IMG/VR virus record: IMGVR_UViG_2512047041_000001
Direction: 5' to 3' (one strand)
From: a virus
Lineage: Duplodnaviria; Heunggongvirae; Uroviricota; Caudoviricetes
Length of the DNA: 36,304 bases
Below the pieces are notes generated by a model. It had not been told where the DNA came from and ran no database searches. It saw only the letters and a program-made list of their open reading frames with translations. Numbering within the stretch: the stretch's first letter is position 1; each line of letters opens with the position of its first letter. Positions 18,031 through 36,304 of the stretch are shown piece by piece. A program made the translations under genes and the position numbers.

Positions 18031-19339
<1,309 letters not shown>

Positions 19340-30825: not shown

Positions 30826-31425
30826 ATGCGTAAATTATGTGCTGTTATTCTGTCCGCAGTAGTCTGGCTGGTTGCCGCTGGTACGCCAGCGAGCGCAGCA
30901 GAGCATCAGTCCACACTAAGCGCCGGGTATCTTCAGACCCATACTGATATGCCAGGCAGTGATGACCTGAAGGGCATTAACGTGAAATACCGTTATGAAT
31001 TTACGGACACGCTGGGGCTGGTGACGTCATTCAGTTATGCCAATGCCAAAGATGAGCAAAAAACGCATTACAGCGATACCCGCTGGCATGAAGATTCCGT
31101 GCGTAACCGCTGGTTCAGCATGATGGCGGGGCCATCTGTACGCGTGAATGAATGGTTCAGTGCTTATGCGATGGCAGGTGTGGCTTACAGCCGTGTTTCG
31201 ACGTTCTCCGGGGATTATCTCCGCGTAACTGACAACAAGGGGAAAACGCACGATGTGCTGACCGGAAGTGATGACGATCGCCACAGCAACACGTCTCTGG
31301 CGTGGGGAGCTGGCGTGCAGTTTAACCCGACCGAATCCGTGGCCATTGATATTGCTTATGAAGGCTCCGGCAGTGGCGACTGGCGCACTGACGGTTTCAT
31401 CGTGGGTGTCGGTTATAAGTTCTGA
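30826..31425 (+). CDS. lom: Lom outer-membrane beta-barrel protein (Ail/Lom/OmpX family)
   Basis: 199 aa with signal peptide and C-terminal aromatic residue (GYKF); matches remembered lambda Lom. Confidence 0.85.
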   Translation: MRKLCAVILSAVVWLVAAGTPASAAEHQSTLSAGYLQTHTDMPGSDDLKGINVKYRYEFTDTLGLVTSFSYANAKDEQKTHYSDTRWHEDSVRNRWFSMMAGPSVRVNEWFSAYAMAGVAYSRVSTFSGDYLRVTDNKGKTHDVLTGSDDDRHSNTSLAWGAGVQFNPTESVAIDIAYEGSGSGDWRTDGFIVGVGYKF

Positions 31426-31453
31426 TTAGCCAGGTAACACAGTGTTATGACAG

Positions 31454-31479
31454 CCCGCCGGTTCAGGCGGGCTTTTTTG
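31454..31479 (+). terminator. Rho-independent terminator after lom (GCCCGCC-loop-GGCGGGC then T6)
   Basis: Hairpin and T-tract read directly. Confidence 0.55.
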
Positions 31480-31483
31480 TGGA

Positions 31484-33889
31484 GTGGATATGGCAGCAGT
31501 AAAAATCTCAGGTGTGCTGAAAGATGGTGCGGGAAAACCAATACAGAACTGCACTATTCAACTGAAGGCAAAGCGTAACAGCACCACGGTACTGGTGAAC
31601 ACGGTGGCCTCTGAAAATCCGGATGAAGCCGGGCGTTACAGCATGGATGTTGAGTATGGCCAGTACAGCGTTATCCTGCTTGTTGAAGGTTTTCCGCCTT
31701 CACATGCCGGAACCATTACCGTCTATGAAGGTTCCAGACCAGGTACGCTGAATGATTTTCTCGGTGCCATGACGGAAGATGATGTCATGCCGGAGGCATT
31801 GCGTCGTTTTGAGGAAATGGTGGAAGAAGCGGCACGCAACGCCGAAGCCGCCTCTCAGAGCGCAGCGGCGGCAAAGAAATCCGAAACTGCAGCGGCATCA
31901 TCGAAGAACGCGGCGAAAACCTCAGAAACGAATGCAGCTAATAGTGCACAGGCGGCAGCGACCTCACAGACTGCATCAGAAAACTCCGCGACAGCAGCCA
32001 AAAAATCAGAAACCAACGCGAAAAATAGCGAGACAGCCGCAAAGACGAGCGAAACCAACGCAAAGTCCAGCCAGACGGCAGCGAAGACCAGCGAAACGAA
32101 TGCCAAAGCCAGTGAAACTGCGGCAAAAAACAGCCAGGTTGCAGCAGCCCAAAGCGAGAGCGCGGCAGCCGGTTCTGCGACTTCAGCAACTGGATCAGCA
32201 ACTGCTGCGGCTAACAGCCAGAAAGCTGCGAAGACGAGTGAAACTAACGCAAAGTCCAGCCAGACGGCAGCGAAGACCAGCGAAACGAATGCCAAAGCCA
32301 GTGAAACTGCGGCGAAAAACAGTCAGGATGCAGCAGCCCAAAGCGAGAGTGCCGCAGCTGGTTCTGCAAGTGCGGCGGCTTCTTCTGCCTCTGCATCAGC
32401 CAACAGTCAAAAAGCTGCAAAAACCAGTGAAACCAACGCAAAGGCGAGCGAGACTGCGGCGGCTAACTCAGCGAAAGCATCGGCAGCAAGCCAGACGGCT
32501 GCAAAAGCAAGTGAAGACGCAGCCAGAGAGTATGCAAGCCAGGCTGCGGAGCCGTATAAACAAGTTTTGCAGCCGCTTCCCGATGTGTGGATACCGTTTA
32601 ACGATTCACTGGATATGATTACGGGCTTTTCGCCGTCATATAAAAAGATTGTTATTGGTGATGATGAAATAACGATGCCTGGCGATAAGGTTGTAAAGTT
32701 TAAACGCGCATCAACTGCCACATATATCAATAAATCAGGCGTATTTAGTGTTGCTAAAATTGATGAGCCACGATTTGAAAAAGAAGGTTTATTGATTGAA
32801 GGACAGCGCACTAACTATTTTGTTAAATCCAATATCCCCGCTGAATGGACGAGTACCAGCAATATCGATAAAACTAATAATGGTGTTGATGAATTTGGTT
32901 TTTCATATGCCAAAATGCGAACAAAAGATAATATGACAGGACAATCATCTGCACTTAGTCTGCATACATGCAGTGCATCCCGGGGGATTGATGTTAGTGG
33001 CGATAATAAGTATTGCACTGTTTCATGCAGGGTTAAAGCTCCTGATGGTCTTCGTTGTCGTTTGCGTTTTGAAAAATACGATGGGTCGGTTTATACATTT
33101 TTAGGAGATGCTTATTTAACTTTCGGAACTCTGATAATAGAAAAAACTGGCGGAGCAGCCAATAGAATAGCAGCTACTGCAACTAAAGATCCGGTTACAG
33201 GGTGGATTTTCTATGAGGCAACTATAGAAGCTGTTGAAGGTGAAACCTTAATTGGCGCAATGATTCAGTATGCGCCGAAAAAAGGTGGTGTAACTGAAGC
33301 GGGAGATTATATTTACCTTGCAACACCACAATTTGAAAACGGCGGATGTGCTTCATCTTTTGTTATTACGACAACTGTACCCGCAACCCGCTCCAGTGAT
33401 ATGGTGACGATCCCAACTGAAAATAATATCTATAATAGACCGCTTACGTGCCTGGTCGAGGTTAATAGAAATTGGGGCGATATTCCTCCTAATGTAGCAC
33501 CGCGTATTTTTGATTTTTCTGGTGTGCCACCTATTGAGTCAATTACATACGCTTTTAACACAACTGAGAAATATTACGGTCAGCTTTATATGCAAACTTA
33601 TAAAGCGTCGACAAGTACTTACGTTTCTAGTGTGTTTGCTGGTCGAACTGATGTTCGAAAATTCATTGGTGGTTTTAATATTTATTCTGATGGTACTAAA
33701 CGAGTAGTTTCTAACGGTGAGGCTACTAAAACCATGAAAACGGAGTGGACGGGCGTAAAAACACGGACCTTTATTCGAATTGGAGGTCAAGCCACATCGG
33801 GAACTCGTCATCTATTCGGCCATTTGAGAAATCTTCGTCTCTGGCATAAAGAATTAACTGATGCGCAAATGGGGGAGAGTATTAAATGA
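31484..33889 (+). CDS. stf: Side tail fibre Stf, mosaic: lambda-Stf-like N-terminus, tandem fibre repeats, and a low-GC C-terminal domain with LamG-like signature
   Basis: N-terminus MAAVKISGVLKDGAGKPIQNCTIQLKA as in lambda Stf; repeated AAKTSETNAK units; C-terminal GHLRNLRLWHKELTDAQM resembles the LamG-type motif. Confidence 0.8.
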   Translation: MDMAAVKISGVLKDGAGKPIQNCTIQLKAKRNSTTVLVNTVASENPDEAGRYSMDVEYGQYSVILLVEGFPPSHAGTITVYEGSRPGTLNDFLGAMTEDDVMPEALRRFEEMVEEAARNAEAASQSAAAAKKSETAAASSKNAAKTSETNAANSAQAAATSQTASENSATAAKKSETNAKNSETAAKTSETNAKSSQTAAKTSETNAKASETAAKNSQVAAAQSESAAAGSATSATGSATAAANSQKAAKTSETNAKSSQTAAKTSETNAKASETAAKNSQDAAAQSESAAAGSASAAASSASASANSQKAAKTSETNAKASETAAANSAKASAASQTAAKASEDAAREYASQAAEPYKQVLQPLPDVWIPFNDSLDMITGFSPSYKKIVIGDDEITMPGDKVVKFKRASTATYINKSGVFSVAKIDEPRFEKEGLLIEGQRTNYFVKSNIPAEWTSTSNIDKTNNGVDEFGFSYAKMRTKDNMTGQSSALSLHTCSASRGIDVSGDNKYCTVSCRVKAPDGLRCRLRFEKYDGSVYTFLGDAYLTFGTLIIEKTGGAANRIAATATKDPVTGWIFYEATIEAVEGETLIGAMIQYAPKKGGVTEAGDYIYLATPQFENGGCASSFVITTTVPATRSSDMVTIPTENNIYNRPLTCLVEVNRNWGDIPPNVAPRIFDFSGVPPIESITYAFNTTEKYYGQLYMQTYKASTSTYVSSVFAGRTDVRKFIGGFNIYSDGTKRVVSNGEATKTMKTEWTGVKTRTFIRIGGQATSGTRHLFGHLRNLRLWHKELTDAQMGESIK
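31990..32520 (+). repeat. Tandem direct repeats inside stf (about 180-bp units, with about 42-bp sub-repeats encoding ...AAKTSETNAKxSxT...)
   Basis: Near-identical segments around 32033-32140 and 32222-32330 read directly. Confidence 0.8.
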
Positions 33890-34167
33890 AAGATTTAACG
33901 CTCAAATTTGCAGACAGGGCCGACTTTTCGGCCTTTATGGAGAGTATTGGCTATTATGATGACGAGTCGATGCAGGATGATATTCTTATTGACGTGATAG
34001 GTAACGTGTACAAAGAAACCGGAGAACTGACTGAAGATGGCGAACCGGTATGTGTTAAGGAGGACGGATATTTTGTAAACGTGCGCATCATTAATGATGC
34101 AAAAAAATCGTCAATATTCGATAAATACGCGATTGTTGTTGAGCATCAACTTCGTGGCTGGATGTGA
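33886..34167 (+). CDS. Hypothetical acidic protein (93 aa), translationally coupled to stf
   Basis: ATGA overlap with the stf stop; low-GC; no recognisable family. Confidence 0.5.
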   Translation: MKDLTLKFADRADFSAFMESIGYYDDESMQDDILIDVIGNVYKETGELTEDGEPVCVKEDGYFVNVRIINDAKKSSIFDKYAIVVEHQLRGWM

Positions 34168-34176
34168 GGGAGACAA

Positions 34177-34881
34177 ATGGCTACATCGACAGTAATTCCA
34201 GGAGACATCACCACGTTAAAGGGAGATGTCAGTAAAGCCAAGGAAGATATTTCCTCAATTAACGGAAAAGTATCAACGCTTCAGACTGATATGACCAGTG
34301 CAAAGCAGGATATCAGCACCAGATACACAAAAACTGAAGTTGATAATAAGCTGAAAAACAAAGTGGAAGTGAACGATCTGGAAAGTGGTCGTTATGGTGG
34401 AGATTTTTACCCGCTGACTGGTCGTGAAGCGTTTTATTTGTGGGGATTGGGCACGACTACAGCGGCGGCAAACCTTTATCTTAATCCTGACCCCGCAATT
34501 TCGTCTGTACTGCGGTCCACATCGTCTATCCGCTATAAACATTCAGTAGAGACGATAGATTCGGAGCACGCCGATCTCATTTTCAGGATGCGCCCTGTGT
34601 GGTACAGGTCGCAATGCGAAAATGACAGGCGCGATTGGGGATTCTATGGATTGATTGCCGAGGAAGTAGGAGAAATTGCCCCTCAGTTTGTTCACTGGCG
34701 ACCAGCTAACGAGAATGATGCTCCTGAAGCTATTTCCAGCAATGGCCTTGTTGCCGAAGGTGTAATGTACGAACGTCTGGTTGTTCCACTGATTCACCAT
34801 ATCCAGAAACTGACTGAAAGAGTTGATGAACTTGAGTCAGAATTAAAGTTGTTATCAACTTCCCGAAGCGATATCGGATAA
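34177..34881 (+). CDS. Tail-fibre-like protein: coiled-coil N-terminus plus C-terminal intramolecular chaperone (peptidase S74-like) domain
   Basis: RBS GAGGGAG upstream; C-terminal segment SSIRYKHSVETID ... WGFYGLIAEEVGEIAPQFV ... VMYERLVVPLIHHIQKLTERVDELE fits the S74 chaperone pattern (Ser-x4-Lys, GLIAQEV-like core). Confidence 0.55.
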   Translation: MATSTVIPGDITTLKGDVSKAKEDISSINGKVSTLQTDMTSAKQDISTRYTKTEVDNKLKNKVEVNDLESGRYGGDFYPLTGREAFYLWGLGTTTAAANLYLNPDPAISSVLRSTSSIRYKHSVETIDSEHADLIFRMRPVWYRSQCENDRRDWGFYGLIAEEVGEIAPQFVHWRPANENDAPEAISSNGLVAEGVMYERLVVPLIHHIQKLTERVDELESELKLLSTSRSDIG

Positions 34882-34891
34882 AGGAGGAGTA

Positions 34892-35185
34892 ATGGATATA
34901 ACACCTTTCCTTCATGCACTTTGTGCTGTGGCTGCGCAGGTACTGGTTGGTCTTTTTACCGGAAACTGGGCTTACGGGGCGATAGCCGGTTGTACGTTCT
35001 TCATTGCGCGTGAACATACCCAGGCAGAATATCGCTGGATTGAAATGTTCGGGCATGGCAAGCGAATGAATATGCCGTGGTGGGGCGGTTTTGATCCGCG
35101 CGCGTGGGATGTGGCAAGTCTGATGGATTTTGCTGTGCCGGTGGTGGCGTGTCTGCTGGTCTGGCTGTTGGTTAATCGTGGGTGA
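34892..35185 (+). CDS. Small integral membrane protein (97 aa, 2-3 predicted transmembrane segments), unknown function
   Basis: RBS AAGGAGG upstream; hydrophobic segments LHALCAVAAQVLVGLF, AIAGCTFFIA, FAVPVVACLLVWLLV. Confidence 0.5.
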   Translation: MDITPFLHALCAVAAQVLVGLFTGNWAYGAIAGCTFFIAREHTQAEYRWIEMFGHGKRMNMPWWGGFDPRAWDVASLMDFAVPVVACLLVWLLVNRG

Positions 35186-35198
35186 AAAAAGGTGAGCT

Positions 35199-35323
35199 GT
35201 ATATGCAACGGAGGAAGAAACCTCGTTGCGGGAAGCCTGGAAGAAGTATCGGGTGTTGCTGAACCGTGTTGATACATCAACTGCACCTGATATTGAGTGG
35301 CCTACGAACCCTGTCAGGGAGTA
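35199..35323 (+). pseudogene. tfa: 3' remnant of a tail fibre assembly gene (tfa): the last ~40 codons only
   Basis: Translation ...[38 protein letters not shown] matches the conserved Tfa C-terminus; in-frame stop directly upstream. Confidence 0.7.
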
Positions 35324-35378
35324 ATCATTGGGATTATGCCGCAGCACGTCTTAAGCAAGAACGTGCTGCGGTTGGATG

Positions 35379-36047
35379 CTATTTTTTCCCTGAAGCGGAA
35401 AACATTACTACAGTACCTTGAACCTTGGTTTTAACATTCTCGAAATGCTCTGAGAGTATATGTGTTAAGCCTTCTTCGGAATCTTTTGTGTTTGAAAAGA
35501 TGCCTTTCTGATTGTAAATGCGCATCAGTTTTTGACCGAAGCTATTGTGCACAACTCCATCGCCAAGAATTGTGGCTCCGTATAGAGTTCCATCGTCAGT
35601 TAAGGCCTGCGCCGCATTGCGTATTACACAGCTTTTTGTAGATATATTTCCAGGCAGGCAGTGAAGAAGGTAAAACATGGAAATGGAATCAAATTGACCA
35701 TGTAACGCCGCGGGATAAGGTTCAAAAACATCATGGCTAATTTTATGTTTAATTTTTGATTCCCCAGCCCTTGTAGATGCCGCGTTCAGGCTAGCTTCGT
35801 TCAAATCCATTAAAGATATCAGACTACTCTCAGGTACGTGAGTAAGGTAAAACCCAGTTCCAACACCAATATCCAGATGGTTGTTACCTAAATGTTCCAG
35901 AAAGTGTGGAAGAAGGTGTTCCTTTGTAGGACATCCCCATGCAAGCCGATTTGATACTCCCAAAACCCACCAGTCATAAAGCTTTAGGGTAAGTGGTGTG
36001 TAAATTTTAGCCCCATCATCTGTGTTTTTTTTCATTAATTTCACCAT
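35379..36047 (-). CDS. ybcY: Class I SAM-dependent methyltransferase (YbcY-like), low-GC
   Basis: Motif I LDIGVGTGFY, acidic beta-2 end (LMDLN), motif FDSISMFYLLHCLPG; no DPPY/NPPY DNA-methyltransferase motif; flanked by tfa fragments as remembered for DLP12. Confidence 0.65.
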   Translation of the reverse strand: MVKLMKKNTDDGAKIYTPLTLKLYDWWVLGVSNRLAWGCPTKEHLLPHFLEHLGNNHLDIGVGTGFYLTHVPESSLISLMDLNEASLNAASTRAGESKIKHKISHDVFEPYPAALHGQFDSISMFYLLHCLPGNISTKSCVIRNAAQALTDDGTLYGATILGDGVVHNSFGQKLMRIYNQKGIFSNTKDSEEGLTHILSEHFENVKTKVQGTVVMFSASGKK

Positions 36048-36103
36048 GTTATAGTTTTATTTGTGAATTAAATCAATTATGGCGATGAATTACAAGGGGT
36101 TAA

Positions 36104-36304
36104 ATGCTGCCGCAGCATAGCGATATTGAAATAGCCTGGTATGCTTCGATACAGCAGGAGCCGAATGGCTGGAAGACCGTCACCACACAGTTCTACATCC
36201 AGGAATTCAGTGAGTATATTGCGCCACTGCAGGATGCTGGGAAATCGCAACGGAGGAAGAAAGATCGTTGCTGGAGGCATGGAATAAATATCGGGTATTG
36301 TTGA
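36104..36304 (+). pseudogene. tfa: 5'-truncated, frameshifted tail fibre assembly gene fragment (tfa-like), running to the window edge
   Basis: HSDIEIAWYASIQQEPNGWKTVTTQFYIQEFSEYIAPLQDA matches Tfa family proteins; the conserved continuation EIATEEERSLLEAWNKYRVLL is in a different frame from about 36245; no Tfa N-terminus upstream. Confidence 0.65.

Follow-up and report, generated by a model that had tools for sequence, protein, structure and literature searches.

An intact ybcY gene, for a predicted methyltransferase, between two tfa relics in a DLP12-type lambda-like prophage of Escherichia coli

Location and organization of the ybcY region

The 36,304-nt sequence of virus record IMGVR_UViG_2512047041_000001 (the whole stretch analyzed, hereafter the window) ends in a segment, positions 35186–36304, in which ybcY, a minus-strand gene for a predicted S-adenosylmethionine (SAM)-dependent methyltransferase, is flanked by two fragments of the tail fibre assembly gene tfa. 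This segment is the already annotated tfaD-ybcY-tfaX corner of a DLP12-type lambda-like prophage, and its layout is a common and ordinary one. Considered as a whole, it is best explained, in our view probably correctly, as the start of the cargo arm of the prophage, with ybcY as a self-contained moron and the tfa relics as recombination scars. Morons, of which lom and bor of lambda are examples, are extra phage genes reportedly equipped with a promoter and a terminator of their own, as Hendrix and colleagues described for HK97 and HK022.

The region 34800–36304 of the window is 99.9% identical to the chromosome of E. coli IAI39 and to several other E. coli chromosomes. In IAI39, the sequence beyond the segment encodes an alpha/beta hydrolase, ompT, envY, ybcH and nfrA, which identifies the DLP12 locus. 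In K-12 MG1655 (NC_000913.3), tfaD, a ybcY pseudogene, tfaX, appY and ompT are found within the annotated cryptic prophage DLP12; the order tfaD-ybcY-tfaX, which the preliminary description of the segment had given for K-12, was thus confirmed from the K-12 record. The K-12 arrangement is found again in thousands of RefSeq-annotated genomes and in deposited phages, and the segment does not represent a new kind of element. The following features were distinguished.

34892–35185, plus strand: 97-aa open reading frame (ORF), last gene of the tail fibre module, directly upstream of the first tfa relic (phrog_1443, E = 3.5e-59)
35205–35324, plus strand: tfa relic 1, the final 39 codons and stop of tfa, own start codon absent (Pfam Caudo_TAP; Prokaryotic Genome Annotation Pipeline, PGAP)
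35338–35372, no strand assigned: strong GC-rich hairpin, candidate two-way transcription stop (RNA folding of both strands)
35379–36035, minus strand: ybcY, predicted class I SAM-dependent methyltransferase, 218 aa from M5 (Pfam, motifs)
36048–36103, minus strand: ybcY promoter region with two candidates (consensus scan; RpoD SELEX listing, PMC3946193)
36104–36193, no strand assigned: spacer of uncertain origin, from the ybcY promoter to the second tfa relic
36194–36304, plus strand: tfa relic 2 (tfaX), mid-to-late part of another tfa allele, frameshifted and cut by the window end

The two tfa relics

A repeat search revealed a direct repeat between positions 35205–35262 and 36247–36304, with 84% identity over 58 nt, its length being limited by the window end. 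The same pair in the IAI39 locus, whose identity to the window is 99.98%, spans 75 nt at 86.7% identity (BLAST E = 2.9e-18), and cross-matches of the relics to tfaD and tfaX of K-12 cover 97–104 nt at ~83.5% identity (E = 1e-20). The match is far beyond chance. The repeat search and the K-12 cross-matches confirmed that two pieces of the tfa 3′ end, in direct orientation, flank the methyltransferase gene, and the pieces align both to each other and to Tfa proteins. The preliminary description had given the identity as about 80% and the second piece as starting at 36240: the repeat is real, at 84–87%, but Tfa homology in the second piece begins earlier, at ~36194 (YIQEFSEYIAPLQDA...), as seen in the Caudo_TAP profile match and in tblastn comparisons with the Tfa genes of lambda, P2, Mu and P1.

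Neither piece approaches the ~190–194 codons of a full-length tfa. The first (35205–35324) consists of 39 Tfa codons, in frame to the stop, in agreement with the earlier estimate of the last ~40 codons. It matches positions 105–130 of the 131-position Caudo_TAP profile (E = 3.8e-13) and is labelled by PGAP in IAI39 as ‘tail fiber assembly protein, missing N-terminus’; its homology to the full-length tfa of K-12 and of phage PhiR26_1 starts exactly at 35205. The second piece, with ~45 codons, is devoid of the N-terminal ~135 codons of Tfa. The intact 101-aa version of this piece, present in phages ev243 and PhiR26_1, matches Caudo_TAP positions 75–121 of 131 (E = 9e-18). Alignment with PhiR26_1 and K-12 showed that 7 bp (TAGATCT) are deleted in the window between 36239 and 36240, which causes a frameshift, and the PGAP label is accordingly ‘frameshifted; missing N-terminus’. 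The piece had been described as 5′-truncated and frameshifted, and both features were found; in IAI39 it is also broken at its 3′ end, where Tfa homology stops early, after residues NRVDTS.

Decay of the second relic takes at least three forms: the 7-bp frameshift in the window, IAI39 and PhiR49_1-type sequences, an in-frame stop that shortens the ORF to 186 bp in K-12 and in phages Kati and PhiR68_2, and replacement of the 3′ end after NRVDTS in hydrolase-type genomes. These three independent damaged states speak against the view that the second tfa piece still functions as a small gene, for instance for a truncated chaperone or for a protein that regulates fibre assembly. This view, which draws on the intact 101-aa ORF with an ATG start in ev243 and PhiR26_1, we regard as quite unlikely, given also that the first ~26 residues of that ORF match no Tfa protein and that phage Ayreon is entirely without the second piece.

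Identity is 84–87% between the two relics but 97–99% between each relic and the matching piece of other strains, so the relics stem from different tfa alleles and not from a recent duplication. The same figures bear on a simpler history, in which ybcY entered one tfa gene, or the region was recently duplicated, and the two pieces are the halves or fresh copies of one gene. The direct orientation of the pieces, immediately on either side of a cargo gene, would fit such a history. However, the Tfa codons covered by the two pieces overlap, so they cannot be two halves, the first copy is a complete tfa in PhiR26_1 and K-12, and the ybcY unit occurs in Citrobacter without any tfa. Insertion or recent duplication is thus very improbable, and we prefer to see the relics as remnants of two distinct alleles.

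Both relics also match the Rfam family IS009 (RF02111), at 35183–35281 and 36127–36304 of the window (E = 8.5e-15 and 4.4e-14), which raises the question of whether tfa-end sequences are conserved as a structured small RNA. In the window the relics reach 68.4 and 65.7 bits, and in IAI39 79.9 and 71.9 bits, all short of the gathering score of 117. The full-score match of K-12 (227.8 bits) falls inside the intact coding sequence of tfaD, and the same stretch is conserved at the protein level in the Tfa proteins of lambda, P2, Mu and P1. The match can therefore be explained by coding conservation, and we consider the RNA alternative extremely improbable. As an observation in its own right, RF02111, although catalogued as an RNA gene, apparently coincides with sequence that codes for the Tfa protein.

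The spacer between the ybcY promoter and the second relic (36104–36193) is kept in Ayreon despite the loss of ybcY. In IAI39, PGAP calls a DinI N-terminal fragment here, on the minus strand at ~36122–36202. This candidate was rejected, as the stretch between ybcY and tfaX gave no Pfam match and tblastn with Citrobacter DinI reached only E ~1.7.

Recombination at the tfa 3′ end

The preliminary description had read the paired fragments as the footprint of repeated recombination at tfa. The window was aligned with eight genomes: K-12 and phages PhiR26_1, Ayreon, ev243, 2G7b, Kati, PhiR68_2 and PhiR49_1. One conserved block, composed of the hairpin, ybcY, its promoter and tfaX, was found joined on its left side to different fibre modules, at least four in number, with differing breakpoints, as follows.

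K-12 and PhiR26_1: homology starts at 35205, inside a full-length tfa; a full stf-tfa pair lies on the left in PhiR26_1
Ayreon: homology starts at 35193; another side fibre gene on the left
ev243 and 2G7b: homology starts at 34881 and 34891, respectively; the 97-aa ORF on the left is shared
Kati and PhiR68_2: homology starts at the hairpin (35339); tfa and ybcY are separated by an invertase module
PhiR49_1: homology starts at 31378, the architecture being as in the window throughout (31378–36304 at 97.1% identity)

Two of the left joints lie within ~12 nt of each other, inside tfa. The 120-nt tfa 3′ end was located at 18,599 places in 5312 of the 5426 complete E. coli genomes, with a median of four per genome. 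As such a dispersed repeat, it clearly lends itself to homologous exchange between prophages. The comparison of genomes supports the proposed footprint of repeated recombination, as judged from these alignments: the relics would be scars left by exchanges in the conserved C-terminal part of tfa, and fibre modules and cargo sets would have been swapped onto one ybcY block through the tfa 3′ end.

Structure of the ybcY unit

The longest ORF in the segment (35379–36047, minus strand) encodes 222 aa. The real start of ybcY is probably the fifth codon, M5, at position 36035, which gives a protein of 218 aa, since homologues begin with MKKNT, the PHROG profile starts at residue 5, and a GGTGA sequence is placed 5 nt upstream. 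In K-12, ybcY is made a pseudogene by a 2-bp deletion in which the G of this M5 ATG is lost. The guanine-cytosine (GC) content of ybcY is 0.408, compared to 0.512 for the whole window, 0.52 for its positions 1–31000 and 0.517 for the first tfa relic. The earlier picture of an intact, low-GC gene on the minus strand was therefore accurate, as was the statement that its product has no DNA-methylase motifs.

Two sigma-70-like promoter candidates lie upstream of ybcY on the minus strand. The first has a −35 element TTGATT (36076–36071), a 17-nt spacer and a −10 element TATAAC (36053–36048), while the second, identified by a consensus scan, comprises TTAACC (36103–36098), a 16-nt spacer and CATAAT (36081–36076). 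The TTGATT-17-TATAAC promoter is listed for ybcY, at an RpoD holoenzyme site found by systematic evolution of ligands by exponential enrichment (SELEX) in the K-12 spacer between the divergent ybcY and tfaX, and the same spacer bears an H-NS mark (Shimada et al., 2014; PMC3946193).

The hairpin at 35338–35372 separates the convergent tfa relic and ybcY. Folding of either strand is predicted at −24 to −29 kcal/mol (z-scores −4.0 and −4.45), and a T-run, which overlaps the ybcY stop codon, begins ~9 nt past the stem. The edge of the ybcY block coincides with the hairpin in Kati and PhiR68_2 (35339) and in Citrobacter (35367). A small RNA of Shigella, CssrB, was considered for this region (35308–35370) and rejected, as the Rfam match was weak and partial (32.6 bits; gathering score 76).

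The extent of the unit is apparent from more distant relatives. In Citrobacter freundii, where the protein is 90% identical, DNA homology covers 35367–36190 at 91.8%, i.e., the gene and 143 nt upstream, and stops just short of the hairpin; tfa is missing from the neighbourhood, and a complete dinI comes next. A second E. coli island shares 35366–36096 of the window at 84% identity, and the ~50 nt directly upstream of ybcY are common to this island (84%) and Enterobacter (70%). These shared upstream sequences indicate that the promoter region travels with ybcY. In Citrobacter braakii, a 68%-identical ybcY homologue was observed beside sodC, a transthyretin-like gene, dinI and a gene for a SopA-like effector, in a region that looks like a prophage-derived cargo island resembling Gifsy-type regions.

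From this organization, the accessory cargo arm of the prophage would begin here: the fibre operon would end in the tfa relic and then the strong hairpin, and ybcY would be a self-contained moron reading toward the hairpin from the opposite side, with its own sigma-70 promoter region. We infer that ybcY may be transcribed from this promoter in the lysogen, probably damped by H-NS, and that its product may be an optional host-benefit protein with no part in phage growth. Several points weigh against this account. The consensus terminator scan did not call the hairpin at 35338–35372, which is no canonical intrinsic terminator; the two candidate promoters overlap. The intactness of the second relic in ev243 and PhiR26_1 means that it may have some role. 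Finally, the clustering of breakpoints is drawn from a comparison of eight genomes, in which some shared joints may stem from a single ancestral event.

YbcY as an enzyme

By its sequence, YbcY is a predicted class I SAM-dependent methyltransferase. It matches Pfam families Methyltransf_12, 23, 25 and 11 (Methyltransf_12 with 37.6 bits against a cut-off of 30). The SAM-binding motif I, LDIGVGTG, occupies residues 58–65, and its glycines G61, G63 and G65 are each retained by 90% or more of 76 family members. The acidic residue predicted to bind ribose, D81, is located at the end of a predicted strand (76–81) and is invariant in the alignment of these members, which also keeps H129, G157 and D189. 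The AlphaFold2 model of YbcY (predicted local distance difference test score, pLDDT, 95.4) shows a seven-stranded Rossmann-like fold.

In a regular-expression search of YbcY, neither the DNA-methyltransferase motif (D/N/S)PP(Y/F/W) nor a PC dipeptide was found, and the Pfam matches include only generic small-molecule methyltransferase families and no DNA-methylase family. The structural neighbours, namely DhpI, PmtA, BelI/CysG, NodS, JHAMT and SgvM, are all small-molecule methyltransferases. The profile match to solved methyltransferases covers only the SAM-binding core (residues 54–156), and no structural neighbour stands out; consequently, no substrate can be transferred to YbcY. The search for characterized relatives, suggested in the preliminary description, thus yielded generic small-molecule enzymes, but nothing specific to YbcY emerged from solved structures, either by sequence or by fold.

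The YbcY family comprises 1321 representative clusters at the 50% identity level (E up to 0.001) and spans many bacterial phyla and fungi; fusions to a cytochrome P450 and to an RCC1-like domain each occur in one relative. ORFs were called and clustered in 76 loci of YbcY homologues from diverse bacteria, 64 of which had a recognizable methyltransferase ORF, and no neighbour family was found to recur in them beyond close relatives. PHROGs assigns YbcY to a family of unknown function, and the only NCBIfam matches (CpaM, RquA) are far below the cut-off. A role in defence or anti-defence was considered and rejected, the PADLOC match being only marginal (E = 0.0033). In the paper library that was searched, no study characterizing YbcY was found. 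A K-12 ybcY mutant has been reported to have no effect on Hha toxicity; that K-12 allele is a pseudogene. We know of no characterized member of the family.

The best inference from these data is that the substrate of YbcY is probably a small molecule or a lipid, rather than DNA. It could alternatively methylate a macromolecule (tRNA, rRNA, protein or DNA), for example to protect phage DNA or to adjust host translation. This we judge unlikely, in view of the missing DNA-methylase motifs and Pfam families, the marginal PADLOC match, the small-molecule enzymes that give the best PDB profile matches, the three N-terminal helices typical of such enzymes, and the cytochrome P450 fusion in one relative. 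Within the small-molecule or lipid class, a more specific proposal is that YbcY acts as a lysogenic-conversion enzyme on an envelope lipid (as PmtA does) or on a toxic small molecule of the gut, as part of a cargo set with the hydrolase and OmpT. We hold this to be a highly doubtful option; if it were true, an envelope or defence cargo set (YbcY, hydrolase, OmpT) would have been spread by phages to ~70% of E. coli.

Distribution, phage carriage and selection

The DNA of ybcY (at least 95% identity) was detected in 3831 of 5426 complete E. coli genomes, usually once, and in up to four copies. E. coli ECMA0423 (CP178302.1) carries two identical copies 178 kb apart on one chromosome, which agrees with the multiple copies per genome and with carriage by several prophages. 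A ybcY-type gene stands alone on the chromosome in Salmonella and Enterobacter.

By tblastn, a protein 99–100% identical to YbcY is encoded in 14 phage records, representing 12 distinct phages. The gene order was inspected in six of them (ev243, 2G7b, PhiR26_1, PhiR49_1, Kati and PhiR68_2). Phages ev243, 2G7b, PhiR26_1 and PhiR49_1 carry J, lom, fibre genes, ybcY in reverse orientation, a tfa relic, the gene for a 494-aa hydrolase and ompT; Kati and PhiR68_2 have appY in place of the hydrolase gene, as in K-12. In the three records that run on (ev243, 2G7b and Kati), ompT is followed by the integrase gene. The whole arrangement is therefore the cargo of phages deposited as isolates. The hydrolase gene and ompT likewise lie inside such phage genomes. 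The 494-aa alpha/beta hydrolase, encoded just beyond the window in IAI39, gave a PADLOC candidate, ‘C3a206, TAP-like protein’ (E = 6.8e-56).

The ratio of nonsynonymous to synonymous substitution rates (dN/dS) for ybcY against five relatives is 0.10–0.20, which indicates purifying selection, and the cluster of the intact 222-aa protein has 6589 members, compared to 445 and 30 in the two largest truncated clusters. Inactivating mutations in homologues, which had been named beforehand as a possible objection, do occur in a minority, such as K-12, but the large majority are intact and under purifying selection. Ayreon, whose record gives E. coli K12 as host, has lost 35415–36073 with both flanks kept: the first tfa relic, the hairpin and the last ~36 nt of ybcY are retained, the latter joined directly to the upstream spacer. 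Given this loss, ybcY is not needed for lytic growth. YbcY is thus intact and conserved in most E. coli, and it travels with OmpT on phages.

The adjacent fibre module

The 97-aa ORF that precedes the first tfa relic (34892–35185) gave no Pfam match, and its PHROG, phrog_1443, is of unknown function; the junction between this ORF and the relic also occurs in ev243, 2G7b and PhiR49_1. The fibre module further to the left (31484–34881) differs from the stf-tfa of lambda. Its 801-aa Stf contains Ala/Ser/Thr-rich tandem repeats of ~189 bp (32024–32272 versus 32213–32461, 84% identity) and is followed by a 93-aa ORF and a separate 234-aa ORF, which is equivalent to the C terminus of long fibre proteins with its Peptidase_S74 chaperone domain. 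In IAI39, PGAP annotates stf as two pseudogene pieces together with an antisense hypothetical protein.

Comparison with known systems

The small-molecule methyltransferases DhpI (3ou2), PmtA (8ys9), BelI/CysG (9fce, 9fcq), NodS (3ofj) and JHAMT (7ec0) are only distant counterparts of YbcY, which shares no more than 11–21% identity with them. Both tfa relics align to the conserved C-terminal part of the Caudo_TAP proteins, i.e., lambda Tfa, P2 G and Mu/P1 U; in contrast to these, they are only fragments, one without a start codon and the other frameshifted.

The likeness to phage morons is more extensive. The ybcY gene is placed between phage modules, differs from them in GC content, has its own promoter region and abuts a hairpin; some relatives carry it and others do not, and it is dispensable. 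For ybcY, transcription in the lysogen and termination at the hairpin are predicted features.

The six inspected phages (Nesevirus/lambda-like) share the position of ybcY after the fibre genes, and they vary around it. On the left of ybcY, PhiR26_1 has its full stf-tfa pair, Kati and PhiR68_2 the invertase module, and 2G7b a different fibre gene, while ev243 and PhiR26_1 differ in the intact second relic. The segment is a textbook case of lambda-like phages exchanging tail fibre modules and cargo via the conserved tfa end. Its practical value is small.

The closest known system is DLP12 of K-12, with an identical locus and gene order and 97.8% identity over 35205–36296. In K-12, tfaD is longer and fused to the remains of packaging genes, tfaX reaches the end of Tfa and has a stop codon in place of the 7-bp deletion, and appY occupies the site of the IAI39 hydrolase gene. 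Unlike DLP12, the prophage of the window has kept a complete lambda-type late region (terminase, portal, head, tail, J and lom), and the segment supplies an intact reference copy of ybcY, the gene that is broken in K-12.

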